Of a stretch of 64,000 nt of DNA, positions 3,734 through 59,460 are shown in pieces. The DNA comes from an uncultured Bacteroidales bacterium. GTDB lineage: Bacteria; Bacteroidota; Bacteroidia; Bacteroidales; JAGOPY01. The position numbers and the translations under genes were made by a program. How positions within the stretch are numbered: the stretch's first letter is position 1; the number at the start of each line of letters is the position of its first letter. The DNA lies in assembly GCA_963701785.1 (NCBI GenBank), contig CAVPBC010000002.1, positions 2,484,458-2,548,457 of the forward strand, written 5' to 3'. Below the pieces are notes generated by a model, which searched no databases, was not told the DNA's origin, and worked only from the letters and a program-made list of their open reading frames with translations.

Positions 3734-4464
3734 ATGAAACGACTTCTGCTCATCAGCAATTCAACAAACGTAGGCGAGCCCTATTTAGGATGGCCAAGGT
3801 CTTATATATCTGCTTTTCTTGAAGGTACAGGTGTTAAAAATATTCTTATTTGTCCCTTATGCCGGGGTGAACCTGGCTTCAGAAAGTGTCGAAAAATCTT
3901 ATGATCTTTATGAGCAGCGGGTGCAATCCGTTTTTAAGGAACTTGGCTATGGGATTTATTCCATCCACCGGGAAAAAGACCCGGTCAGGGCGGTGGAGAG
4001 GCTAAAGCTATCGCAGTAGGAGGGGGCAATACCTTCCACCTGGTTTACATGCTGCATAAGCTGAACCTGGTTCCGGTCATCCGCGAGACGCGCCCTTGAA
4101 GGGATGCATTTCTTGGGCTGGAGCGCCGGTGCGAATGTGGCCTGCCCCACGCTTGCGCACCACTAACGACATGCCCATCATACAGCCGGCCAGTTTTGAT
4201 ACATTTAACCTGGTACCTTTCCAGATCAACCCGCACTACCTGGATGCCAACCCGGAAGGCCATGGTGGCGAGACACGACAACAAAGGATTGAAGAATTCC
4301 TGGCTGTAAACAGGGATGTGACCGTTGCAGGTTTGAGAGAGGCTTCGCTGATACAGGTGGAAGGTGATAAGTATGAACTCAAAGGCAGCAGGCCGATGCG
4401 GATATTCAGATATGGCCGCGAACCTGAGGAAGTTGCTCCCGGAACAGGGGCTATAGCTTTATAA
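3734..4464 (+). CDS. pepE: Dipeptidase E (peptidase S51), three frame breaks in this assembly
   Basis: Pieces MKRLLLISNSTNVGEPYLGW / FVPYAGV...YSIHREKDPVRAVE / GGGNTFHLVYMLHKLNLVPVIRE / [61 protein letters not shown] are colinear with E. coli PepE as I recall it. Breaks near 3845, 4010 and 4090. Confidence 0.8.
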
Positions 4465-7041: not shown

Positions 7042-7078
7042 TTTAATTAAAAATTAAAAATTAAAAATTATAAATTCA
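7042..7078. repeat. Heptamer array (AATTAAA x about 5) filling the whole gap between the cyclase stop and the PhzF-like start
   Basis: tttaattaaaaattaaaaattaaaaattataaattca; the cyclase stop codon (7076-7078) sits in the last degenerate unit. Confidence 0.85.
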
Positions 7079-9019
7079 GCACTCAGATTCAACAATATAC
7101 ATATCTATTTCACCCTTGTTCTTTGCCTGTATCTTGCCCCGGTGGGTGCAGTTAAACCGTTCTTTAATAAACTCATAAGTGGTGCCGGAGATATTTACCT
7201 GGCCCGGGATGCCGCTTGATTCCATGCGGCTGGCCGTATTTACGGCATCGCCCCAGATGTCGTATGCAAATTTGTTTTTGCCGACAACACCGGCAACCAC
7301 CTGTCCCGTATGGATTCCGATCCTTAACTCCCAGTAATCCTTACCCTGATTTTCACGGTCAATTTTCAGTTGCTCCATGAATGCTTTGATTTCCAGTCCG
7401 GCCCTGACAATATCAACAGGATTGGAATCATTGGCAACAGGGATGCCACCGGCACACATATAAGCATCACCAATGGTTTTGATCTTTTCCAGGTTATGTT
7501 TGTCGATGATCTTATCGAATTCGAAAAAGCAATAATTCAATTCTTCGATCAATTGCTTGCGCGGTAAGTTTTTCGGCAATTTTCGTAAATCCTTTGAAAT
7601 CGGTGAACAGGACCGAAACTTTATCGTAATGCTTCGGGTGTTGCAGATGCCTTTTTCCTTAAGTTCATTGGCAGTTTCGTGAGGTAAGATATTTAAAAGA
7701 AGTTTTTCAGAGCGATCTTTTTCATCTTCAATGATTTTCTTGGTCTTCCTGACATATTTATAGCGGTTAAAAAGTCCAATGGCCATGACGAGCAGCAGAA
7801 ACCCTGTGCTGCCTGCGGCGTAAGTGGCAATTCGCTGCCGTTGAAGGCTTAATTCCTGAAGGGCATTATCCTTGGTAAGAAGATCGATATCACCCTGTTT
7901 CTTCTCTATATCATAACTCAACGTCATGAATTGAAGCTTTTTATCCATTTCTTCATTATAAAGAGAATCCTTCATAACAATGTATAATGCCTGGTATTTA
8001 TAGGCATTGGTATAATCCTTCGTTTTTGAATAAACATTTGCCAGGCCTTCGTATATTTCTTTCAGTTCATTTTTGGTCCTGATTTCTTCACCTGTTTTTT
8101 GCGCCTCCCGGTATGCAGCTATTGCCAGTGGAAGATTTCCCTGTGCATTAAATGTTTTAGCAAGCCCTAAAAAAGATTGTGTCATTTCAAGCTTGGCATC
8201 CAGGCTTTTAGCTCTTTCGATGGCTTCTTTCTGGAATTTGACTGCCTGCTCGTATTCACCCTGCCGGGCATATACTTTGCCTATATTATTCAATGTGTAT
8301 GCGACTTTAACGCTTTCGACTTTTTCATATGCTTCCAGGGAAGTGTTGAAATAGAACAAGGCTGAATCATACTGGTTCCTTTTTAGGAAGATTTCCCCCA
8401 TATTGACAGCTACTGTCCCGATGGCTTGATAATCCCCGAGTTCATTGCTGAGCGGAAGTGCTCTGTTATAAAATTGCAGGGCCATGTCATTTGTGGCTTC
8501 CTTATTGGAATAAACTGCCCCTATATTGACCAGTGCCGTGGCAATCCTTAATTTATCGTCAATTTCTTCAGCAACCTTTAAGGACTGAAATAGGTATTCG
8601 ATCGCTTTCGTGTCATCACCCTGGTTGAAATGGACCATACCGAGATTGTTTGACATATTGGCCACACCCACTTTTTCGCCGATAGAATCAAAAGTGCTTA
8701 ATGATTGTTGCCAGTAGATCAGCACATCGAAGTATTCCGCCTTGAAATAATGGCCCATGCCGATGCTTTTCAGGGCGTATCCCAATCCTCTTTTATAGTT
8801 CAGTTTTTCTGCAAGTTCTCTTGCCTGTGTGCCATAAAAGATGGTTGCTTCAGGATCAGAATTGACTAACCTGTTAGCGAGAGTGATAAGTGTATTAACT
8901 TTTGTGGTATCATCTTCGGCGCCAGCCACAACAGCTTTCAGACTGTCGATCTGGCTGTTTTGAGCAGAACACAGGGCAGAAATTAAAATAAAGGAAATGC
9001 ACAAAAGGAATTTTTGCAT
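7076..9019 (-). CDS. TPR-repeat / transmembrane / class III adenylate-guanylate cyclase, with an internal out-of-frame stretch
   Basis: Signal sequence, about 9 TPR-like repeats, one TM helix, then LLNILPHETANELKEKG and GDAYMCAGG...YDIWGDAVNTASRMES cyclase motifs. The expected FTDFKGFT metal-binding strand is readable only in another frame (about 7557-7632). Confidence 0.85.
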   Translation of the reverse strand: MQKFLLCISFILISALCSAQNSQIDSLKAVVAGAEDDTTKVNTLITLANRLVNSDPEATIFYGTQARELAEKLNYKRGLGYALKSIGMGHYFKAEYFDVLIYWQQSLSTFDSIGEKVGVANMSNNLGMVHFNQGDDTKAIEYLFQSLKVAEEIDDKLRIATALVNIGAVYSNKEATNDMALQFYNRALPLSNELGDYQAIGTVAVNMGEIFLKRNQYDSALFYFNTSLEAYEKVESVKVAYTLNNIGKVYARQGEYEQAVKFQKEAIERAKSLDAKLEMTQSFLGLAKTFNAQGNLPLAIAAYREAQKTGEEIRTKNELKEIYEGLANVYSKTKDYTNAYKYQALYIVMKDSLYNEEMDKKLQFMTLSYDIEKKQGDIDLLTKDNALQELSLQRQRIATYAAGSTGFLLLVMAIGLFNRYKYVRKTKKIIEDEKDRSEKLLLNILPHETANELKEKGICNTRSITIKFRSCSPISKDLRKLPKNLPRKQLIEELNYCFFEFDKIIDKHNLEKIKTIGDAYMCAGGIPVANDSNPVDIVRAGLEIKAFMEQLKIDRENQGKDYWELRIGIHTGQVVAGVVGKNKFAYDIWGDAVNTASRMESSGIPGQVNISGTTYEFIKERFNCTHRGKIQAKNKGEIDMYIVESEC

Positions 9020-12508: not shown

Positions 12509-12552
12509 GAAATTGAAATTTGGGATTTTGATTTTGGGATTTGGAATTTTAT
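12509..12552. repeat. Heptamer array (GGGATTT / TGATTTT / GGAATTT units) abutting the OLD-nuclease stop
   Basis: gaaattgaaatttgggattttgattttgggatttggaatttta, ending at the stop codon 12553-12555. Confidence 0.8.
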
Positions 12553-14986: not shown

Positions 14987-15028
14987 CGATAGGACGATAG
15001 GACGATTGGACGATTTGAAGATTTGATG
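14987..15028. repeat. Octamer array with stepwise drift (CGATAGGA, CGATAGGA, CGATTGGA, CGATTTGA, AGATTTGA)
   Basis: Read directly; starts 9 nt after the stop at 14978 and ends 16 nt before the gmhA ATG. Confidence 0.85.
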
Positions 15029-24014: not shown

Positions 24015-26305
24015 ATGCTCAGCAGGTTATATATTCTGGCCCTTACTTTTTACGCTTTCATCAGCTATGGACAGGATCATTCCATCAAAGTCTATTCGGA
24101 TAATCGCCTCGAATACGATTTCCCCTGGGCAGGAGGCATGAATTCGTGCCAGTTCGGCAAGGTGGATATGAATTTAGACGGACTGAAAGACCTGGTCGTG
24201 TTTGACAGGGCCGGTGACCGGATCATGCCTTTCCTGGTCGTCCAATCAGGTAGTAATTTCGAATATAAATATGCCCCTGAATTTGCAGAGAATTTCCCTG
24301 TCCTTTCGCACTGGGCGATTTTTGCAGATTACGACCTCGACGGAAAAGAGGATATCTTCACTTATTCACCCGGGTACGCGGGCTGAAAGTATACCGCAAC
24401 ACCTCGGGAAGTACGCTGGAATTCACCCTGGAAGTTTTTCCATTCCTGACTTCTTTCCAGGGTGGGGGATATGTCAATATTCTCGTAACCTATGCCGATT
24501 ACCCCGCCATTACTGACCTCGACGGGGACGGCGATCTTGATATCCTAACTTTCTGGGGACTGGGCTCATTTGTCGAAAAGCACCGGAATATGTCGATGGA
24601 AAAATACGGGCATGCCGATTCACTGGATTTTGAAAAGACGGAATTTTGCTGGGGATATTTTGCTGAGAGCGAAGAATCGAACGATTTGACGCTGGATACC
24701 TGCCTGAGATGTGGGGATGCGGGGAGGCGGGGAAGCGGGGAGGCGTGGATGCGGGGAGACGGGGAGCGCCATACCGGCTCAACTTTTCTGGTACTTGACT
24801 TAAACGATGATAATCTGTCGGACCTTTTGCTTGGAGATGTGGATTATCCCAACCTGGTTGCGCTGTATAACGGGGGAAGTCCGGATACCGCCCGGATGGT
24901 TTCTTATGACTGGCAATATCCGCCTTACGACAAATCCGTTAACCTGTTTTCAATGCCTGCAGCATTCAATGATGATTTTGACTTCGATGGAATTAAAGAC
25001 CTAATGGTCTCACCTTTTGACCCTAATCCTTTCCTGACGGAAAATTTCAGGAGTGTTTGGCTTTACCATAACGACGGGACCAATAGCGCCCCTCTTTTTC
25101 ATACAAAGTCCCTGTCATTTATACAGGACCGGATGATAGACCTGGGAGCCGGTGCATACCCGGTGTTCTATGATATCGACCAGGATGGCCTGGTGGATTT
25201 GTTTGCCGGCAATTATGGCTATTATGACACCTCTTATTTAGATGAGTTTCTTATCCTTCATACCGAGCAAACCGGTAAGCTGGCTTTTTTTAAGAATACC
25301 GGAACACAGGAAACACCTGCCTTTACATTTGCCGAAAGGGATTTCGCCACAGTATCCGCCCTTGATCTCAGGGGAATTGTGCCTGCTTTCGGTGATTTAG
25401 ATGGAGATGGCGATACGGATATGCTTCTTGGATGTGAAACCGGGCAGATAATTTTATACCTGAATTCCGCAGGAACCGGAGAACCTGTAAACCTGGAATT
25501 TAACCAGTCAGATTACCAGGGGATCGATGTTGGAGCATACAGCACTCCGCAGCTTTTTGATCTTGACAGGGACAACCTGGATGACCTGATCATCGGTGAA
25601 AAGGGAGGTAATCTCAATTATTTCCGAAATACCGGGACATTCCAAAAACCTGCATTTACCCTGGTGACAGACAGCCTGGGGAAAGTGAATGTGACCGATC
25701 CTGCCGTTTCGCTTGACGGGTACAGTGTGCCATTCTTTTTCAGGGATGCGGCCGAACATACTCATTTGCTGGTTGGTTCGGAACAGGGAGTTATTTATTA
25801 TTTTACCGGGATTGACGGTAACCTGGCTGGAAAATTCACTGAATCCGACACCCTCGCCGGTCTCATCGGTTTGGAGGAATTCAATGCAGACCGCGGATAC
25901 CGGACGGCCCCGGCTTTATTTGACCTTGATCAGAACGGCCACCCGGATTTAATTGCAGGAAATTTCTCAGGCGGAATGGAATACTTTGCCAGTTCTGAAA
26001 ATCCTCCTGTCGCCGGCCTGGATGACATGGATTTATTAATTCCTGATGTTGTAATTTACCCGGTACCGGCGCCAGGTCAATTTAATATAAGTATGACCGA
26101 TCCGGGTAACTGGCGTATTGCAGGTGTGAAGATCCTGACAATGGATGGCCGGGTAATTCATTCTTATGTTTATGATAAAATGCTTCAATTAGCAATAAAC
26201 ATCAACCTCGTTTCCAAAGGTTTATATGTTTGCCAGGTTCTTTTAAAAGAGATGAATACAATGCAAACCCATTCCTGTCAAAGTAAGTTAGTCCTGGTTT
26301 TTTAA
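24015..26305 (+). CDS. FG-GAP/VCBS-repeat protein with T9SS C-terminal sorting domain, one frame break near 24380
   Basis: Signal MLSRLYILALTFYAFISYGQ; repeated Ca-binding DxDxDG loops (DLDGDGDLD, DIDQDGLVD, DLDGDGDTD, DLDRDNLDD, DLDQNGHPD); C-terminus VIYPVPAPGQFNISM...LYVCQVLLKE is CTD-like. Confidence 0.75.
24708..24770. repeat. G-rich octamer array (GAKGCGGG x about 7) inside the FG-GAP CDS; six GGGG tracts
   Basis: gatgtggg gatgcggg gaggcggg gaagcggg gaggcgtg gatgcggg gagacggg gagcgcc; encodes CGDAGRRGSGEAWMRGDGER. Confidence 0.85.
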
Positions 26306-39538: not shown

Positions 39539-42500
39539 CTAATCGCTGTAAGAAATCTGCATCAGTGAAACTTCAAAATCCCCGCCTTCAGGATAGAAGG
39601 TGATCCAGTTATTATCATCGCTGAACCATTTGTACTGTGCACTGATCCTCACCACAAACTCAAAAAGGTCTTCCCCGGCAGGGACTTTTATCACCACACC
39701 GCCATTTTTTGTCTGGTCCTTGCCAAAACTGATGATGAGCTTATATTCATCTTTGGAAACATTCCGCGCCCTGAAGAATATGTAATTGCTTTTACGGTCT
39801 TTGACAGGAACGGGGATGAAATCAAATTTATGCTGTGTGTTGTTTGAGATAAGTAATGGTTCTTTATTGATCTGGACAATAGATCGTTCTGTAAGCAGTT
39901 TTAAAATGCGGCGGACCATTTCTTTGGGATATTCCTCTTCGGGCTTTAATAAGATAGAAGCCCTGTATGATTCAATGGCATTGTCATAAATTTTCGAAGC
40001 AAAGAATTTATCGGCATCGGCTATTGACTTATCATATTCTTCCTGGATCAACTGCCTTTTTTTCATAATTTGCTCATTGACCAGTTTCAGCTTATCCAGG
40101 GGATAAAGTTCTTCAGGCTTGAGTTCCAGTGCCCGGTCATATTGCAGTTTGGCCATTTCATAGTCTTGCTGATCAAAGTAATTGTCAGCTTTGGATATGG
40201 TTATCTGGTAGGTCTGATCGCGCTGTGCTTCCAGGGCATCCAGGGTACGGTTAATTTCGATTACCTGTTTATTTGGAAATTCCTCGGCAGGTTTGATGGT
40301 AAGGGCTTCCTGGTATGCTGCCCTGGCTTCTTCATATTTTTCATTTTTCATAAAATCATCCGCACTGGCAATAATTAAATTATATTGCTCATCGATTTCC
40401 TTTTGTTTCCTGATCTCTTCTTGCCGGGTTTCTTCCTGCCTGGCAATTTCTGCGATTGCAACATTTATTTCAGCAATCTTTCCCTGCGGGTAACTTTCCC
40501 CGGCCTTCAGGCCGAGGGCTGCTTGATAACCTGCCATAGCTTTCTGGTAATCCTTTGCCTGGAAAGCTAAATCGGCACCTGAGATGGCATCTCCGTATTG
40601 CTTATCGAGGGCTTCTTTAGCAGCGATCTCGCCGAGGATGCCATTGATCTCGTCGATCTTTCCCTGCGGGTAACTTTCCCCGGCCTTCAGGCCGAGGGCT
40701 GATTGATAACCTGCCATGGCTTTCTGGTAATCCTTTGCCTGGAAAGCTAAGTCGGCAGCTGAGATGGCATCTCCGTATTGCTTATCGAGGGCTTCTTTAG
40801 CAGCAATATCACCCAGGATGCCATTGATCTCGTCGATCTTTCCCTGCGGATAACTTTCCCCGGCCTTCAGGCCGAGGGCAGCTTGATAACCTGCCAAAGC
40901 TTTCTGGTAATCCTTTGCCTGGAAAGCTAAATCAGCAGCTGAGATGGCATCTCCATATTGCTTATCGAGGGCTTCTTTAGCAGCAATCTCGCCGAGGATG
41001 CCATTGATCTCGTCGATCTTTCCCTGCGGGTAACTTTCCCCGGTCTTTAGACCGAGGGCCGCTTGGTAACCTGCCATTGCTTTCTGGTAATCCTTTGCCT
41101 GGAAAGCTAAATCAGCACCTGAGATGGCATCTCCGTATTGCTTATCGAGGGCTTCTTTAGCAGCGATATCGCCGAGGATGCCATTGATCTCGTCGATCTT
41201 TCCCTGCGGGTAACTTTCTCCGGTCTTTAGGCCGAGGGCTGATTGATAACCTGCCAGGGCTTTCTGGTAATCCTTTGCCTGGAAAGCCAAATCGGCAGCT
41301 GAGATGGCATCTCCGTATTGCTTATCGAGGGCTTCTTTAGCAGCGATATCGCCGAGGATGCCATTGATCTCGTCGATCTTTCCCTGCGGGTAACTTTCCC
41401 CGGTCTTTAGGCCGAGGGCCGCTTGGTAACCTGCCATGGCCTTCTGGTAATCCTTTGCCTGGAAAGCTAAGTCGGCACTTGAGATGGCATCTCCGTATTG
41501 CTTATCGAGGGCTTCCTTAGCAGCGATATCACCGAAAATGCCATTGATCTCGTCGATCTTTCCCTGCGGATAACTTTCCCCGGCCTTCAATCCGAGGGCC
41601 GCTTGATAACCTGCCAGGGCCTTCTGGTAATCCTTTGCCTGGAAAGCTAAGTCGGCAATTGAGATGGCATCTCCATATTGCTTATCGAGTGCTTCATTAG
41701 CTGCGATTTCTCCGAGGATACCATTGATCTCGTCGATCTTTCTTTGCGCGTAACTTTCCCCGGCCTTCAGGCCGAGGGCAACTTGATAACCTGCTAAAGC
41801 TTCCTGGTAATTTTTGGATTGCATGGCCAGGTCTGCAACCGAGATGGCATCCAGATATTGGGTATTTTTAACTTCCAGAGCTGCCTGTTCAACGGAATCA
41901 TTATCGATTTCGAAAACCTTTTCCGCCTGGTAAGCGGCTATACCTTCCTGGTATTCCTGCTTGGTGATGGCATTCTCCTCCCCGGCAATCTCATCCCGGT
42001 TTTTACCGCCACTTGCCTGTTTACTGGCATTTGTTGCAAGAATAGTTTCGATCTCCTGGATCTTCTGCTGGGGATATTTCTCTTCAGGATTGATCCCGGC
42101 GGCATTGCGGAATTCAATCAGTGCAGCCTCATAGTCCCTGTCATACATTAGCTGATCGGCATTTGTGACAGCTTTTACATATTTATCCCGGATCCCTAAA
42201 ATTTCGTTGATCATAGTGATCTGGTCAAGCGGATATTGCTCCTTCGGGAATAATGCACTTGCAGACCGGTATTGCTCGCGGGCTTCCACATATTCATCGG
42301 AGAAAAACAGGCGGTCGGCCCCTGTGATAAGGTTATTATATACTTCTCTATTGCCGGCCAGGTTCGATAATATCGTATTGATCTCATCAACCTTAACTTT
42401 CGGATACTGTTCCAGCGATTTGATCCCTATCGACCTGTTGTATTCATCTCGTGCTTCTTCGTAACGTTCTTCCTTAAAAAGGTTATCTGCCCGGGCAATA

Positions 42501-43636
42501 GCCTGTGTATATGCATCTTCCTGTGTCTTTCTCAGGCTGAGCGCTACATTGATATCGTTGATCCGCTGTTTTGCGTAATCTTCTTCAGGTTTAAAATGCA
42601 GGGCATTCTTATATTCGATCATCGCCCGTTCATAGTCCTGCTCGCTGAACAGCTTGTCGGCAAGGGCAATGGTAACTTCATAACTTGACCTGTTGGATTT
42701 GGAAATGTCCATCAGGGCAATGTCTATTTTTTCAAGCATGCTTTTCGGATATTCATCAGCAGGCTTGATAGACTGGGCCTGCAGGTATTTCTCCTGCGCC
42801 AGCTCAAATTCTTTCGATATATAATAATTATCCGCTTCTTCAATGATGGAGGCATAAGAATCCCAGGCAATTTTGAGATCCTGCGCCTCTGCAAGTTTCT
42901 GTTTCGGCAGATTTTCATCAGGCTTGAGCAGAATGGCCGCTTCCAGCAACCTGATGGCATCGTCATATTTATTTCTCGAAATAGCAAAATCGGCATCCTG
43001 AAGTAAGGATTCATAATTACTCGTTGCTGTATTACTTGCCGTTAATAATGTTTGGACCTGAATTGTTTTCTCTTTCGGGTATGCTTCTACAGGTTTAAGT
43101 TTGGCTGCGTTTTGATATTCAGCCAGTGCATTTTCCAGTTGTAAACCTTTCAGGAACAAATCGCCATTAATGATGCTCTTCTGGTATTTTTCCTCCAGGA
43201 GCCTGTTATCTTCCTGGGTCCTGGTTATCTCCTGCACCCGTCCGGTAGCATAGGCATCGTTTGGAATTATCGTCAATGCTTCCTGGTAAACCTTCAAAGC
43301 AGCATCAAGATCTTTCTTATCATACAGGTCATCTGCAAGCTGGACCTTCTGGGTGTAAAGGCTGTTTTGATACATCTGGACCTTGATCATGTCAAGGGAT
43401 TGCTGCAGGCGGTCCTTTGGATATTGATCTTCAGGCGCAAGCCGGACAGCAATCTGGTAAGAAGCTTTGGCGTTGATGTAATCCCCTTTTGTAAAGTAAG
43501 CGTCGGCCATTTCGATGGTCTTCCTGTATTCTTCAGGATTGTCCTGGGACTGTCCTGTAAAGGCAAAAAAAGCCAGCAAGATCAGCGATAAGAGCACCGT
43601 CTTATGTCGATAGGTCATATGTAGTTTTAGTAGCAT
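39539..43636 (-). CDS. Giant TPR-like repeat protein (about 20 units of a roughly 60-aa motif ending E.YP..KI.EIN..L) with a distinct about 130-aa C-terminal domain
   Basis: Signal/TM TVLLSLILLAFFAFTGQSQ (start may be Met at 43618). Repeat motif recurs along the protein; eight central units are near-identical. C-terminal domain of unknown family. Confidence 0.7.
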   Translation of the reverse strand: MLLKLHMTYRHKTVLLSLILLAFFAFTGQSQDNPEEYRKTIEMADAYFTKGDYINAKASYQIAVRLAPEDQYPKDRLQQSLDMIKVQMYQNSLYTQKVQLADDLYDKKDLDAALKVYQEALTIIPNDAYATGRVQEITRTQEDNRLLEEKYQKSIINGDLFLKGLQLENALAEYQNAAKLKPVEAYPKEKTIQVQTLLTASNTATSNYESLLQDADFAISRNKYDDAIRLLEAAILLKPDENLPKQKLAEAQDLKIAWDSYASIIEEADNYYISKEFELAQEKYLQAQSIKPADEYPKSMLEKIDIALMDISKSNRSSYEVTIALADKLFSEQDYERAMIEYKNALHFKPEEDYAKQRINDINVALSLRKTQEDAYTQAIARADNLFKEERYEEARDEYNRSIGIKSLEQYPKVKVDEINTILSNLAGNREVYNNLITGADRLFFSDEYVEAREQYRSASALFPKEQYPLDQITMINEILGIRDKYVKAVTNADQLMYDRDYEAALIEFRNAAGINPEEKYPQQKIQEIETILATNASKQASGGKNRDEIAGEENAITKQEYQEGIAAYQAEKVFEIDNDSVEQAALEVKNTQYLDAISVADLAMQSKNYQEALAGYQVALGLKAGESYAQRKIDEINGILGEIAANEALDKQYGDAISIADLAFQAKDYQKALAGYQAALGLKAGESYPQGKIDEINGIFGDIAAKEALDKQYGDAISSADLAFQAKDYQKAMAGYQAALGLKTGESYPQGKIDEINGILGDIAAKEALDKQYGDAISAADLAFQAKDYQKALAGYQSALGLKTGESYPQGKIDEINGILGDIAAKEALDKQYGDAISGADLAFQAKDYQKAMAGYQAALGLKTGESYPQGKIDEINGILGEIAAKEALDKQYGDAISAADLAFQAKDYQKALAGYQAALGLKAGESYPQGKIDEINGILGDIAAKEALDKQYGDAISAADLAFQAKDYQKAMAGYQSALGLKAGESYPQGKIDEINGILGEIAAKEALDKQYGDAISGADLAFQAKDYQKAMAGYQAALGLKAGESYPQGKIAEINVAIAEIARQEETRQEEIRKQKEIDEQYNLIIASADDFMKNEKYEEARAAYQEALTIKPAEEFPNKQVIEINRTLDALEAQRDQTYQITISKADNYFDQQDYEMAKLQYDRALELKPEELYPLDKLKLVNEQIMKKRQLIQEEYDKSIADADKFFASKIYDNAIESYRASILLKPEEEYPKEMVRRILKLLTERSIVQINKEPLLISNNTQHKFDFIPVPVKDRKSNYIFFRARNVSKDEYKLIISFGKDQTKNGGVVIKVPAGEDLFEFVVRISAQYKWFSDDNNWITFYPEGGDFEVSLMQISYSD
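40470..41870. repeat. Eight in-phase 180-bp tandem repeats (60-aa units) inside the TPR-like gene
   Basis: The motif cggccttcaggccgagggc recurs at 40501, 40681, 40861, 41041, 41221, 41401, 41581 and 41761. One adjacent pair I compared by eye had 12 mismatches in 180. Confidence 0.95.
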
Positions 43637-44488: not shown

Positions 44489-45822
44489 CTATTCATCCCG
44501 CAGACAGCGAACGATGAAACCGAAAACCTCGTCGTAGTTGCAGTCGTTTCGGTAAACTTCCGGGCCGGAGTAATCGAGGCCACGGTACCACGCTTCATTG
44601 TCGAGCGCCGTCGAAGTCCACCAGAAGCTGGTGAAGCCAACACCGTCGAAGTAACCCCTGTAGTCGCGGTAGCCACCCGGCATACCTGAGAAACCAAACA
44701 GGTCGGTGCCATTGCCGTTCCCGTACCATCCGCTGGTGGTCTTCAGGTTCGTCCCGGCATCATAGCCACGCCAATCCCAACCGTTGCCCCATTCCGGATC
44801 ACCGATTCCGTATTGGCTGTCCACCGCCCCCTCCAGCACTTTCCACTCCTCATCGGTGGGAAGGTGCCAGCCCGGTGGGCAGATGCCCTGGGTGCCTGGT
44901 TGAGTGGTGTATTGCATCATTTCGTTCCACTGGTAAAGGCCGCCGTATTTTTCGCAACTATCAGGCTCGTTGTTGTAACAGTACTTCTCAATGGTTCCAT
45001 TGTTCGATTGTCCCATTGTTCCAGGGATCATTTCGCCCACATTGAGATTTTCCTTTAGCCAGCACTGGCTGAAGATCTGGATGGTGTTGTACACCTGTCC
45101 TTCGTATTCCACCGTAGGTGTTCCCGGGCAGGGGATGTTGGTGGCGAACTGAAAAGTGTAGTTGGTGCTTTCCTCCGGGGAGTCCGGCATGCCGGATTGT
45201 AGGGTGTCTGTATAACCGATATACAGCAGTTCATCCCCCAGGCTGAAGGAGAAATCCTGGATATCCTTCAATGCCTTAAGCTGTGGGAAATAAGCCTCAC
45301 TACCGGTGTATTCAAGCGAGCGGTCCCACCTGAATGAAATCCTGCCTGCAGGATCTTGATACTGCTGCTCTGTCCCTGCCAATGGGCAGTGAAAAAACAC
45401 AGGTTTTCGGCACCTGGAGTGAAGCGGAAGGTGTGCTTTCCTCTATCCAACACTCTTTCAGTCTGAATCATCATTCGTCCCAGGATATCGGTCACGGTGA
45501 TGCTAACTTTTTCCTTCTCAGGAACATACAGCGATACGGTCGTCTGGTCGGCCACCGGATTGGGGTAATTCTGAAATACCTGGAACGCGCTCAGGTTTTC
45601 CGGAATTTCAGGAATCCCCACATAATAGATCGACAGCACCGTATCGGGATAATACAAGATTGTATCTCCTCCCTGGGTGCGGTTCATAATTTTAATGCTG
45701 TCGAGCTTTATGTAAGCAGTGCTGTTAACAGCGGTAAAACTCAGTTCCAGTGTGGTACGCTGTGAAAATAATCCCAACGAAACGAATGCAAAAGATGCCA
45801 TAAGGAATAATTTCTTTGACAT
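44489..45822 (-). CDS. FISUMP-domain protein with an N-proximal T9SS-CTD-like beta-sandwich; one frame break near 45360
   Basis: Signal MSKKLFLMASFAFVSLGLFSQ; NYPNPVADQTTVSLYVPEKEKVSITVTDILGRMM is CTD-like but internal. C-terminal CWLKENLNVG...GGLYQWNEMM...CPPGWHLPTDEEW...GFSGMPGGYR...FWWTST is the Fibrobacter paralogous (FISUMP) pattern. Confidence 0.7.
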
Positions 45823-48024: not shown

Positions 48025-48067
48025 CATTTCACATTGAGCATTGAACTCAGAACTCAGAACTCAGAAC
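48024..48067. repeat. Heptamer array with drift (ACATTTC, ACATTGA, GCATTGA, ACTCAGA x3) filling the convergent pcm/dnaB gap
   Basis: acatttcacattgagcattgaactcagaactcagaactcagaac; begins at the last base of the pcm stop and contains the dnaB stop (48061-48063). Confidence 0.85.
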
Positions 48068-49561
48068 GGCATACTATCCTCATCATCCAGATCCTTCATA
48101 TCATTCATCCTGGATGGCACAGTGCGGAGTTTTTCAGGCAGAAGTCCATCGCCAATCCCTGTATCAGTTTCAATGGCATCGTAATCGGAGAATCGGGCAT
48201 AGCGTGCGATAAATTTCAGGTTTCGTTCACCGAGCGGGCCATTCCTGTGCTTGGCAACGCTGATGACGGCAAGGCCATTGGTAGGTGTTCCATCTTCCAT
48301 CTCGTCGATCTGGTAATATTCCGGACGGTAAATAAAGAGCACAAGGTCGGCATCCTGTTCGATGGCGCCTGATTCACGAAGGTCGGAAAGAATAGGCTTT
48401 TTAGAACCGCCGCGGGTTTCAACGGCACGGCTTAACTGCGAAAGTGCCAGTACCGGGATATCCAGTTCCTTGGCGAGGCTTTTCAACGAACGCGAGATGT
48501 TGCTGATCTCCTGCTCACGGTTTCCCTGCCGGTCGTAATTCCCGGTCATCAGCTGCAGGTAGTCGACAAAGACCATTTCGATATTATGCTGGGCTTTGAG
48601 CCGGCGGCATTTTGCCCGGAGTTCGAAGATCGATAGGGCAGGGGTGTCGTCGATGAAGATCGGCGCGTCGATCAGGCGGCTGATCTTTGAATTGAGCTGT
48701 TCCCATTCGTAATCGGCCAGGTCACCCTTCCTCAGTTTTTCAGCGGGCAGTCCCGATTCCGCAGAGATCAGACGGGTAACCAGCTGTACTGATGACATTT
48801 CAAGGGAAAATACAGCTACCGGCTTTGTGAAAATCCACCGCCATATTCCTGGCCATGGTAAGGGCAAAAGCCGTTTTTCCCATACCCGGACGTGAGGCAA
48901 GGATGATCAGGTCGGAGCGCTGCCAGCCTGATGTCATCCGGTCGATTTCCGTAAAGCCGGATGGCACCCCGCGAAGCTCTGTCTGCTGGTTTTTGGCCGC
49001 TTCGATATAATGCAGTGCTTCCTTGACCAGGGTATTCATATCCATCGTGTTACGCCTGAGGTTGCTGTCGCTGACCGTGAACAGCCCCTGCTCGGCTTTG
49101 TCAAGCATATCAAAGACATCCATGGTGTCTTCGAACGAATCTTTGATGATTTCGGAAGAAATCCTGATCAGTTCCCGCTGGATGTATTTCTGGATGATGA
49201 TATGGGCGTGGTATTCGACATTGGCTGATGAAGCCACACGGTTGGTGAGCTGTGTAATATAATAAGCCCCGCCGGCCAGTTCAAGGTCGCCGGTCTTTTT
49301 GAGTTCACTGGTTACAGTAAGGATGTCAACCGGTTCAGAGCGACCGAATAAACTGATGATGGCGCTATAAATAGTCTTATGCTGGTCTTTATAAAAAACA
49401 TCAGGTTTAAGCATATCAATGACGGAAGTCAGGGCATCTTTTTCGAGCATGATTGCACCCAGGACGGCCTCCTCCAGGTCAACTGCCTGAGGCTGCACTT
49501 TCCCGTGCTCAAACGCGTTATCCTGAGAAGTGTCTTCTTCTCTCAAATCCTTTCCTGGCAA
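48061..49561 (-). CDS. dnaB: Replicative DNA helicase DnaB, one frame break near 48823
   Basis: N-terminal PQAVDLEEAVLGAIMLE; Walker A LIILASRPGMGKTAFAL; then after an extra base (aaaGccgg) PVAVFSLEMSSVQLVTRLIS...VDYLQLM...ALSQLSRAVE. Confidence 0.9.
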
Positions 49562-49742
49562 AGCCTTTTGACTTATCTGACGGGTTGTATCGGGTGTTAT
49601 TTTCCATGCCTCAAATATATGAAATACTGACCCGGATTATCTCCCGTAACCCCTTAACTTATCACCAAAATTGATGTTAATAAGTCGTGAAAAAAAAGAA
49701 AAAAACATGTATTACCGGCACATCTGATACTAACTAAGTCAT

Positions 49743-49791
49743 GACTAATGACCAATGACCAATGACTAATGACCAATGACTAATAACCAAT
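49743..49791. repeat. Heptamer array GACTAAT/GACCAAT x7
   Basis: gactaatgaccaatgaccaatgactaatgaccaatgactaataaccaat; encodes the last codons and the stop (49780-49782) of the minus-strand gene. Confidence 0.9.
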
Positions 49792-50868
49792 CACCTCCCC
49801 ATCCAGGGTCACGTATCCCTTCATCAGATTTGCCGTCAGGCAGGAGTGAACAGGCAGGACACCAAGTATGTCCCCGATCTTGATTTCTTCGATGAACTCC
49901 CTTGGGGCGCGCACGATACCATGTTCCTGCGAGAGATTGGCCAGGTAGGCCCCCGCGATCGGGCGTGACCATTCTTTTTCGGAAATGCGCACTATATAGC
50001 CGAACAGGTGCTCCCCGTTACTCTTATATAGGAAATCTTTTGAGAAATGAATAGCCCCCCCGTAAATCGTAAGTTCGTTACGCAGCAGGCTTTTCCCGAC
50101 AACCGGGCAGGCTACCGCAACAGCGATCTGATCCAGTGTGCATGATCCGAGCGAGAATTGCATCAGGTCATAGAAAACAAAATTGCCGGGCCTGATCTCA
50201 TCAACGGCTGAGAAATCTTCAACAAGGCTGCAACCTGGCGTATCCCCGACGGATATGGTCAGTTCAGGCCAGGCCTCCAGGTAACGCTCCTTGAGGTAGG
50301 TCATTTTTTCGACAGTATCTTTATAAATATCGAGGATCTCCTCCTGGCTGTCGGCCGAATAAGTATGCCCGGAATGGGTAAGGAAGCCTTTGAAATTCAA
50401 CCGGTTAGAACTGGCAAGAAATTCAAGCATCCGGTCAATTTCATTCAGGTCTTTCCAGAGTACGCCTGAACGGTGATGGCCGGTGTCAATTTCTATATAA
50501 AAACCGACTTTGAAGGTTAAGCCATTCTCGACCGATTGCAGTATCGTCGAAGTATCTCCAAGAATATTCAGGTTAAGTTCCGCTGCCAGCTCGCTGATCT
50601 GTCCCAACTCGGCAAGGTTAACCGGGAATGCGATCGTGATATCGCGCCAGCCATAAGCGGAAAAAAATTTGGCCATACTGACTGAAGAAACCGTAATACT
50701 GTGAATGCCAAGCTTACGGAACCAGTTACCGACGAATGCAGAATTATGAGTCTTGAAATGCGGCCTGAAATGCGTATCGCTTTTTTTGGCCTTTTCGTAC
50801 ATCCTGGAAATATTCGATAAACACTGCTCTTTATTCAGAAGAAGTGTTGGTTTTGTTATACTGATCAT
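49780..50868 (-). CDS. D-threonine aldolase / D-serine dehydratase-like (alanine racemase N-terminal fold) PLP enzyme
   Basis: Start chosen at MISITKPTLLLNKEQ; RPHFKTHNS contains the PLP-lysine context of the DSD1/D-TA family; about 362 aa. Confidence 0.65.
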   Translation of the reverse strand: MISITKPTLLLNKEQCLSNISRMYEKAKKSDTHFRPHFKTHNSAFVGNWFRKLGIHSITVSSVSMAKFFSAYGWRDITIAFPVNLAELGQISELAAELNLNILGDTSTILQSVENGLTFKVGFYIEIDTGHHRSGVLWKDLNEIDRMLEFLASSNRLNFKGFLTHSGHTYSADSQEEILDIYKDTVEKMTYLKERYLEAWPELTISVGDTPGCSLVEDFSAVDEIRPGNFVFYDLMQFSLGSCTLDQIAVAVACPVVGKSLLRNELTIYGGAIHFSKDFLYKSNGEHLFGYIVRISEKEWSRPIAGAYLANLSQEHGIVRAPREFIEEIKIGDILGVLPVHSCLTANLMKGYVTLDGEVIGY

Positions 50869-50947: not shown

Positions 50948-51664
50948 TCATTCCACGTAAACCACCAGGTCGTCCTCAATCCCGGGTTGCTGCTGATATT
51001 TCAGGAAAAGCCTGGCAACAGTCAACACATCTTTCTGGCAGTAAACCCTGATCCTTTCAAGGTCCTTTTCTTCCCAGTAAACCCGGTGGATATCGCTCCC
51101 GTTTATATCGTCCTTGGGCGTTGGGATATCAAAAACCGCTGATAGCAGTTCCAGTGATGTATAATGTTTATAATCGCCAAATTTCCAGAGTTCCATGGTG
51201 TCGAGAGACTGCACCTCCCAGGGTTTTTTACCGGCGACATCCAGGATGAAAGGCAATGGCAGTCCATTGATCAGGATCCTCCTGGCCAGGAATGGGAAGT
51301 CGAATTCCTTGCCATTATGGGCGCAGAGCATTTTGTCGGCAAAGTTGAAATGAGCCTCGAGTAATTTGCAGAATTGCCTTAACAGATGGTATTCATCATC
51401 TCCGAAAAAGGATTTTATCCTGAATTCTTTGCCCCTGAAAAAGCCTGCCGAGATACAGATGATCTTGCCGAATTCTGCATAGATACCAGCCCGTGGATAC
51501 AGGCTCATCGGGGTATCCTCAGGGTCTTTTTTCAATGTTTCCGTTTTTCTGTCCCATAACTTCCTGAATTTATCCGGCATCTTATCATACGAGATATAAG
51601 CCGGCGCTGTTTCTATGTCCAGGAACAGGATATTTTCAACAATAATATCTTTCAGCATCATCAA
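50948..51664 (-). CDS. RNase H-fold 3'-5' exonuclease (PolB-exonuclease-like)
   Basis: ILFLDIET (Exo I), CAHNGKEFDFPFL (Exo II), YCQKDVLTVARLF (Exo III). Confidence 0.65.
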   Translation of the reverse strand: MMMLKDIIVENILFLDIETAPAYISYDKMPDKFRKLWDRKTETLKKDPEDTPMSLYPRAGIYAEFGKIICISAGFFRGKEFRIKSFFGDDEYHLLRQFCKLLEAHFNFADKMLCAHNGKEFDFPFLARRILINGLPLPFILDVAGKKPWEVQSLDTMELWKFGDYKHYTSLELLSAVFDIPTPKDDINGSDIHRVYWEEKDLERIRVYCQKDVLTVARLFLKYQQQPGIEDDLVVYVE

Positions 51665-59423: not shown

Positions 59424-59460
59424 TCTATTTCAACATTCAACATTCAACATTCAACATTAT
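59424..59460. repeat. Heptamer array (CAACATT x4 plus degenerate flanks) abutting the PspC-domain gene stop
   Basis: tctatttcaacattcaacattcaacattcaacattat; the stop codon 59457-59459 overlaps the last unit. Confidence 0.9.

Follow-up and report, generated by a model that had tools for sequence, protein, structure and literature searches.

How does a bacterium of the order Bacteroidales come to carry, between two of its genes, a tandem repeat whose unit is also that of a cyanobacterial repeat family? Cyanobacterial heptamers of this kind, called STRRs (short tandemly repeated repetitive sequences), were reportedly described by Mazel et al. in 1990, with three units in Calothrix, and one heptamer, TTGGTCA, we take to be the unit of 'STRR2'. 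The locus lies within a stretch of 64,000 nucleotides that was analysed as a whole (the window, 64 kb), and its parts are the following, where L numbers denote the loci with which it was compared:

49780..50868, minus strand: gene for a D-serine dehydratase / D-threonine aldolase-like (D-TA-like) PLP enzyme of 362 amino acids (Pfam PF01168 and PF14031)
49741..49795, minus strand: heptamer tandem array (Tandem Repeats Finder: period 7, 7.9 copies, 85% matches, score 75)
49718..49778, minus strand: 61-nt segment missing from L150, made up of the non-coding part of the array and a degenerate tail, GACTTAGTTAGTATCAGATG (BLAST and alignment)
49661..49717, minus strand: non-repetitive block, TGCCGGTAATAC...TTTTTTTCACGACTTATTAACATCAATTTTGGTGAT, that separates the array from dnaB and is conserved in L001, L125, L126, L127, and L150
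48061..49607, minus strand: dnaB replicative helicase gene, 3' of the array (Pfam DnaB and DnaB_C on two ORFs; tblastn with the DnaB of L001)

The D-TA-like protein carries the Pfam domains Ala_racemase_N and D-ser_dehydrat, is 100% identical to a protein found by database match (P0001), and has its closest named homologs, at 77% identity, in MAGs of Bacteroidales. It ends in ...GEVIGY, followed by a TAG stop at 49780-49782, and the codons concerned, ATT GGT TAT TAG (I-G-Y-stop, 49780-49791), are at the same time the first 12 nt of the array on the minus strand. Array and gene overlap in these last four codons only, stop included. To the 3' side of the array come a 20-nt degenerate tail and then the non-repetitive block, which follows differing arrays in relatives, is 94.7% identical to its counterpart in L150, and is presumed to be the promoter or regulatory region of dnaB. 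The ATG of dnaB is at 49607, 133 nt beyond the end of the array, and both genes are read from the minus strand.

On the plus strand, positions 49743-49791 read GACTAAT GACCAAT GACCAAT GACTAAT GACCAAT GACTAAT AACCAAT, letter for letter the seven units that a preliminary description of the locus had given: three of the seven are GACCAAT, three are GACTAAT (a one-transition variant), and one is AACCAAT. The minus strand of the array is ATTGGTT ATTAGTC ATTGGTC ATTAGTC ATTGGTC ATTGGTC ATTAGTC AT. By inspection, ATTGGTC rotates into TTGGTCA, so GACCAAT is equivalent to TTGGTCA in phase and strand, as had been claimed. By chance no such array would be expected. The 14-mer GACYAATGACYAAT, with up to one mismatch allowed, has six matches in the 64-kb window, all of them within the array, against 0.13 expected from dinucleotide-preserving shuffles (none of 100 shuffles reached six), and when the window was simulated by a first-order Markov model, periods 4 to 12 yielded no array this strong, save 0.03 at period 6. 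The flanking DNA, for which a check for foreign composition had been proposed, is ordinary, with a GC fraction of 0.42-0.52 in 400-nt windows around the array, against a mean of 0.45 for the window. No Rfam family was found between 49400 and 50000 at E up to 1, no intrinsic terminator was found near the array, its RNA has no stable fold (minimum free energy -15.8 kcal/mol, z = +0.59), and the single weak sigma-70-like match near it is at chance level.

The array has company. A period scan of the 64-kb window found nine arrays of period 7 and four of period 8, 13 in all, where first-order Markov expectation is about zero, and none at periods 4, 5, 6, 9, or 11. All but two of the 13 lie between long ORFs. 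Their units are mutually unrelated (AAAATTC, AATGTTT, AATTAAA, AAAATGA, GCCGACC, TGAGTTC, TTCAACA, CGATAGGA, GGGGAGGC, and others), and GACYAAT is the unit of a single array in the window, the remaining arrays belonging to ten other unit classes. Loci with D-TA proteins 76-93% identical to that of the window (50 kb) hold 13 heptamer arrays and none at other periods from 4 to 10, and the loci of more distant homologs (76 kb) hold 12 heptamer and four octamer arrays. Since the loci of the relatives are also rich in heptamer arrays, period-7 arrays are evidently a trait of the lineage.

Several of these repeats have features of their own. The arrays (AATGTTT/AATGCTT)n at 715-753 and (CATTAAA...)n at 794-840 are reverse complements about 40 nt apart; they lie between divergent genes, where together they form an extended but imperfect inverted repeat. 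Two octamer arrays, (GGGGAGGC)n at 24708-24766 and (GTTCCATT)n at 44994-45023, lie inside ORFs (24590-26305 on the plus strand and 44489-45190 on the minus strand); these ORFs were called mechanically, and the alternatives are true starts downstream of the arrays or translation of the arrays. A 1365-aa ORF on the minus strand (39539-43636) contains 7.4 copies of a 180-bp unit, 92% identical (40476-41811), and so encodes a repetitive protein with 60-residue repeats. In L126, a relative from activated sludge, the D-TA gene is flanked by (CAACGGA)n upstream and by the reverse complement (GTTGTCC/ATTGTCC)n downstream (2924-2989 and 4093-4134); with an inverted pair of one unit class on its two sides, the gene could undergo inversion. 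Three loci of Bacteroidota have composite arrays: L118 (4710-4756) passes from ATTGCTT to AATGCCT to AATGACC to AATGACT, L107 (3164-3221) from AATGACT to ATTCCCT, and L041 (866-968) from AACGACT to AATGACC. They look like snapshots of unit turnover within an array.

How strong, then, is the tie to cyanobacteria? A scan for GACYAATGACYAATGACYAAT, i.e. (GACYAAT)3, over 185,579 species genomes found at least 120 loci. Of the 120 listed, 96 are from photosynthetic cyanobacteria, mostly Nostoc, Anabaena, Calothrix, Desmonostoc, Microcoleus, Tychonema, Moorena, Leptolyngbyaceae, and Chroococcidiopsis. Because cyanobacteria make up a few percent of bacterial species, the bias among the matches listed is strong, and the view that TTGGTCA-type tandems are markedly cyanobacterial is borne out. 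The other matches listed are from Bacteroidota (seven), Planctomycetota (six, with a GC fraction of up to 0.68), Victivallales/Lentisphaeraceae (two), Acidobacteriota (two), one MAG labelled Hyphomicrobiales (two loci), an unclassified MAG (two), and Polyangiaceae, Desulfobacterales, and Sericytochromatia (one each). The GACYAAT unit is spread over at least eight phyla, including Planctomycetota at 60-68% GC. One of the planctomycete loci, L101, from a Pirellulales MAG, has GGCGTTG/A arrays in addition to TTGGTCA arrays, and about 19 copies of GTTAGGG (7496-7627) up to the end of its 47.6-kb contig, a repeat of telomere-like appearance.

The likeness of the remaining arrays to repeats of the Nostocales, also suggested in the preliminary description, has fared less well. 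In Nostoc PCC 7120, GAC(C/T)AAT is repeated eight times upstream of recO, and (TTCAAAA)3 is found upstream of recF (preprint, 10.1101/2022.06.06.494920). The window's array at 564-595 is of the same class as the latter, so the AAAATTC/TTCAAAA class is indeed shared, while 735 kb of cyanobacterial loci contained no array of the AATTAAA class; the suggestion is weakly supported. A common spectrum of units was considered and set aside: three of the window's ten other classes are among the 119 seen in those 735 kb, about one being expected under uniformity, and this is too weak to build on. Around the arrays for which the cyanobacterial loci were chosen, in flanks free of that selection, CAACAGT is one of the most frequent unit classes, and units of the CCCCAAT type are present too. 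This fits the three STRR units of Calothrix.

One way to account for the likeness is to suppose that the array, or a small mobile element with it, came from a filamentous cyanobacterium rich in TTGGTCA/TTAGTCA arrays. The identity of the units extends to the C/T mixture of Nostoc PCC 7120, most of the listed loci are cyanobacterial, as noted, and MacGregor (2015) argued that a different heptamer, TAACTGA, had spread horizontally among Beggiatoaceae, Cyanobacteria, and Bacteroidetes (PMC4679880). What speaks against such an import is, first, that a BLAST comparison of the window with the 120 listed (GACYAAT)n loci matches the array alone, with no homology in the flanks, and that composition around the array is normal. 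Furthermore, we know of no mechanism that would transfer a repeat of 40-60 nt. The close relatives of the window provide the rest of the evidence.

The end of the D-TA gene is conserved. Homologs that are likewise 362 aa long have I-[GSNADT]-Y as their last residues, even at 57% identity, and the DNA of nine relatives has AT[TAC] xxx TA[TC] followed by a stop. The I-x-Y-stop end is thus ancestral, and the array appears to have been built from it. It had been proposed that the array provides the IGY-stop codons of the gene; the direction is the reverse. An array that was the source of the protein's C-terminus is ruled out, as I-x-Y-stop is kept in homologs without a GACYAAT array. Moreover, the native end, ATTxxTT-ATTAGT, is already an imperfect direct repeat of period 7, because the Ile codon ATT recurs 7 nt further on in T-ATT-AG. 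The 12 coding bases ATTGGTTATTAG match the array 14-mer ATTGGTCATTAGTC at 11 of 12 positions, in phase, and the two array units, ATTGGTC and ATTAGTC, differ at the very base that separates the first native heptamer (ATTGGTT, with the Gly codon GGT) from the second (ATTAGT, with the TAG stop). This last agreement is not decisive. The same G/A (C/T on the other strand) mixture of units is found in Nostoc and in L035 (Bacteroidia), without the I-G-Y-stop context, so the mixture alone is no proof that the 14-mer was the seed.

A near-identical strain is represented by L150, a metagenome contig from the Ga0209262 sample. In the final 165 nt of the gene it is 99.4% identical to the window, yet it lacks the 61-nt insert at 49718-49778: by BLAST, L150 1-165 corresponds to 49943-49779 and L150 170-226 to 49717-49661, and its sequence passes directly from TAG to TGCCACGGTAATAC. 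Just past the conserved GGTGAT block, L150 (227-1680) diverges totally from the window, and no dnaB is found there; this reflects either a rearrangement or insertion in the strain or a chimeric metagenome contig. In six of the ten relatives compared, heptamer arrays with other units occupy the same spot, in five of them in register after TTATTAGT, and a seventh has a weak array:

L001 (93% amino-acid identity), after TTATTAGT: TAGTTCT GAGTTCT GAGTTCT, unit GAGTTCT
L122, after TTATTAGT: (AAGTTCA)5
L125, after TTATTAGT: GAGTTTT/GAGTTCT
L128, after TTATTAGT: GAGTGTT/AAGTGTT
L129, after TTATTAGT: TAGTCTT/AAGTCTT
L126, at the D-TA stop: (ATTGTCC/GTTGTCC)6, beginning 3 nt past the TGA stop
L127, at the D-TA stop: a weak array

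No array was found at the D-TA stop of L123, L124, or L130. Counting the window, 7 of the 11 loci compared have an array there, with a weak one in an eighth. The units in register after TTATTAGT share the pattern N-R-G-T-N-N-T (with a final A in L122), which would be expected from common descent or from repeated seeding by the conserved TAGT at the stop. In gene content the neighbourhood varies as well: in the 93% identical relative the exonuclease and D-TA genes are separated by one for dihydroorotate dehydrogenase (L001 2309-3307), while in the window, which has no such gene there, the exonuclease ORF (50948-51664) directly abuts the D-TA gene, a gene-content difference among close relatives.

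Of the two origins that the preliminary description thought conceivable, convergence through slippage is therefore supported and lateral origin is not: only the array matches the cyanobacterial loci, GC is normal, L150 is without the array, and relatives have other units. An import would also have to be an insert of just 61 nt relative to L150 that starts within the native stop-codon context, in phase with an ancestral coding end, at a place where relatives have homologous-looking arrays in the same register. Lateral origin is largely refuted, and we give it very little credence. The array is very probably local in origin, a hypervariable long-unit simple repeat that evolves in place, its match to TTGGTCA being convergent.

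The identity with the cyanobacterial unit is accordingly one of convergence at the level of a 7-mer and not of common descent or transfer. Such convergence is not much to ask. With rotations and reverse complements merged there are 1170 classes of heptamers, and the window uses 12. By our own arithmetic, the chance that a given window matches one of about four STRR classes is roughly 4%, and a match is likely somewhere in the 2.9-Mb genome (about 45 times the size of the window). In the viral contigs of IMG/VR, the target pattern was found in 62 stretches, and three scrambles matched to it in composition were found in 3, 26, and 19. Since the scrambles are also found, arrays of arbitrary heptamers are widespread, with a moderate preference for the TTGGTCA class, whose count is about four times the mean of the IMG/VR controls. 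This residual preference, with the occurrence of the unit in GC-rich Planctomycetota, is the one thing that local seeding leaves unexplained.

The D-TA stop is not the only one in the window with an array. Another lies at the far end of the neighbouring gene:

48043..48067, minus strand: stop-anchored heptamer array at the end of dnaB, ccGTTC-TGA GTTC TGA GTTC TGA GTTC (Tandem Repeats Finder)

Its unit, GTTCTGA, consists of the last 4 nt of dnaB and the stop codon. At the same place L001 has (TGAGTGC TGAGTTC)x5, and L123, L126, and L127 have no array at the dnaB stop, the native end in L127 being ccgttcTGAcag; among the loci compared, only the window and L001 have one. The array at the end of dnaB is a second case of the process seen at the D-TA stop.

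The dnaB gene itself (48061-49607) is spread over three frames relative to the intact DnaB of L001 (aa 1-24, 14-262, and 259-514), so an essential gene has two apparent frameshifts. With a single 2.89-Mb contig as the source, they are most likely indel errors of a long-read assembly, less likely the mark of a pseudogene. One might then ask whether the array at the D-TA stop, or its copy number, is also a long-read assembly error, given that the adjacent frameshifts betray indel errors in this assembly. This is scarcely credible. Such errors could account for a wrong base or copy number, not for the existence of the array. Its two unit variants stand in an ordered mix, and arrays at the D-TA stop are found in the independent assemblies of relatives, as thirteen such arrays are found across the window.

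Anchoring at stop codons may be more general. Five of the 13 arrays of the window overlap a stop or lie within 8 nt of one, where random non-coding placement predicts 1.74 (P about 0.02), and over all Bacteroidales loci the figures are 15 of 42 against 5.2 expected, many of the 15 representing one orthologous site. Besides the array at the D-TA stop, arrays with units of 7 or 8 nt that overlap a stop or lie that close to one are at 7045-7076, 12509-12549, 14987-15026, 48043-48067, and 59429-59458. In the three of these that overlap the stop (7045-7076, 48043-48067, and 59429-59458), the unit includes that stop (TAA in TTTAATT, TGA in TGAGTTC, and TGA in TGTTGAA, respectively). That such arrays tend to be anchored at stop codons is, in a mild way, new. 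It can be explained by a neutral filter: when 7 nt are duplicated within a gene, the frame is shifted and selection removes the change, and a duplication that includes the stop or comes after it is harmless.

A course of events can be proposed for the array at the D-TA stop. The native end ATTxxTT ATTAGT (I-x-Y-stop and one more base) would have served as the starting repeat, and slipped-strand mispairing during replication would have duplicated it on the 3' side of the stop codon, where copies that contain the stop leave the protein unchanged and so are tolerated. Further slippage may then have gained and lost units of 7 nt and spread point mutations through the array, with the present units ATTGGTC and ATTAGTC as the outcome. 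Growth upstream would be prevented because an insertion of 7 nt shifts the reading frame, and downstream the array would be bounded by the conserved block ahead of dnaB. As a consequence, the D-TA stop and the upstream region of dnaB would move apart or together in steps of 7 nt. Most likely, then, the array is a neutral spacer driven by slippage.

Perhaps the spacer does something nonetheless. The array might be a functional cis element, acting as DNA or as intercistronic RNA, whose role does not depend on its sequence: it could bind an OB-fold protein specific for single strands, cold-shock proteins being an example (with roughly one bound every 7 nt), insulate the translation or transcription of D-TA from the dnaB promoter, or supply stop triplets that close all three reading frames. 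Its retention in 7 of 11 loci, despite complete turnover of the unit, could reflect selection for a function of that sort. A stop triplet in most units and the enrichment of arrays at stop codons are in keeping with it, as are the regulatory roles and cold-shock-protein binding proposed for heptamer repeats (PMC4679880) and the effect of heptamer repeats on the activity of the recO promoter in Nostoc (preprint, 10.1101/2022.06.06.494920). However, L150, nearly identical otherwise, has no array, nor do three relatives; the unit is not conserved and has no RNA structure; TTCAAAG, the unit of L122, is free of stop triplets; and neutral filtering also predicts anchoring at stops. On balance a functional element seems unlikely, and the neutral spacer is to be preferred.

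If the array is local, to what class of repeats does it belong? It belongs to the long simple sequence repeats (LSSRs) of Mrazek, Guo and Shah (2007), having a unit within the range of about 5-11 bp, several copies, and an occurrence far above chance, and it is polymorphic, being absent from L150 and replaced by arrays of other units in L001, L122, L125, L126, L128, and L129. It resembles LSSRs, as PMC4692102 and PMC4679880 summarise them, in unit length, in the excess of period 7, in its intergenic position, in its fast change of length and sequence among relatives, and in its attribution to polymerase slippage. Nothing essential sets it apart; its anchoring at a stop codon is a detail not emphasised in those two papers. 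Heptamers are described in the former (citing Mrazek 2007) as over-represented among bacterial simple repeats, which is ascribed to polymerase slippage, and arrays kept between given genes vary in length and sequence among related species, with occasional inverted pairs (PMC4692102). Heptamer arrays are also known from Bacteroidetes, where the orthologous sites of close relatives are free of them; horizontal transfer was suggested (PMC4679880). We regard the array as a hypervariable long-unit simple repeat generated by slippage, ordinary in kind.

The comparison with cyanobacterial STRRs, which are usually of 7 bp and whose function is unknown (PMC2670836), shows where the likeness ends. Like those of the TTGGTCA family, the array consists of units of 7 nt head to tail in non-coding DNA, its unit is identical by rotation and strand, and the admixture of GACTAAT is found both at recO of Nostoc PCC 7120 and in most of the 96 listed cyanobacterial loci. 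Array density is of a similar order, at roughly 1 per 5-6 kb in the window; for the cyanobacterial loci, all chosen because they have an array, it is 1 per 2.4 kb. Unlike STRRs, however, the array has a host from the Bacteroidales; it is the one array of its kind in 64 kb, among 12 unit classes, where STRRs are few units, each used many times; it shares no flanks with the 120 listed loci; and its unit can be traced to the last codons of a neighbouring gene. It therefore matches the cyanobacterial family in unit and form and falls outside it by host and descent.

Other heptamers invite the same comparison. The TAACTGA repeats of Beggiatoaceae, Cyanobacteria, and five Bacteroidetes (MacGregor 2015, PMC4679880) have the same unlikely set of phyla in common with the present case, have other heptamers in their intergenic regions, and are missing from relatives at orthologous sites. 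The window's unit differs from TAACTGA in every rotation on both strands, and the repeats of Beggiatoaceae lie a few nucleotides upstream of start codons, whereas the array abuts a stop and is 133 nt from the dnaB ATG. The GGGAATC and GGGGA(C/T)T repeats of Xanthomonas and Nostoc (Rehm et al. 2015, PMC4692102) are likewise intergenic heptamers with occasional inverted pairs, which have counterparts here in the window (715-753/794-840) and in L126, but they are G-rich and capable of forming quadruplexes, while GACYAAT has no run of G and no predicted structure. Nor does the array look like a phase-variable contingency locus. The units past the first stop are untranslated, and the array is upstream of the conserved block of dnaB and not within it, the block being the presumed site of the promoter.

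A bolder reading is that arrays anchored at stop codons, conserved in position while their units are replaced, arise from a process specific to period 7 and constitute a distinct feature of the Bacteroidales lineage, perhaps found elsewhere too, with the recurrence of TTGGTCA as a preference of that process. We think this improbable. Were it true, the process would be a peculiarity of replication or repair, or a protein that binds in 7-nt registers; arrays anchored at stops might also occur in filamentous cyanobacteria, Planctomycetota, some Bacteroidota, and others; and the recurrence of TTGGTCA (in at least eight phyla and at about four times the IMG/VR controls) would be a real sequence preference and not chance.

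As a local, hypervariable repeat, the array by itself matters little, being one more of a kind known from cyanobacteria, Xanthomonas, Beggiatoaceae, and Bacteroidetes. Its value is rather as a worked example of how an array may be born, with a proto-repeat of period 7, made of the last codons and the stop, copied in the 3' direction, where copies are harmless. Units evidently turn over so fast that close relatives have the site in common and not the sequence. This argues that identical heptamers in distant phyla, sometimes taken as a sign of horizontal transfer, can come from convergence. In practice, such arrays should make good strain markers, and they call for caution in the annotation of the 3' ends of genes.
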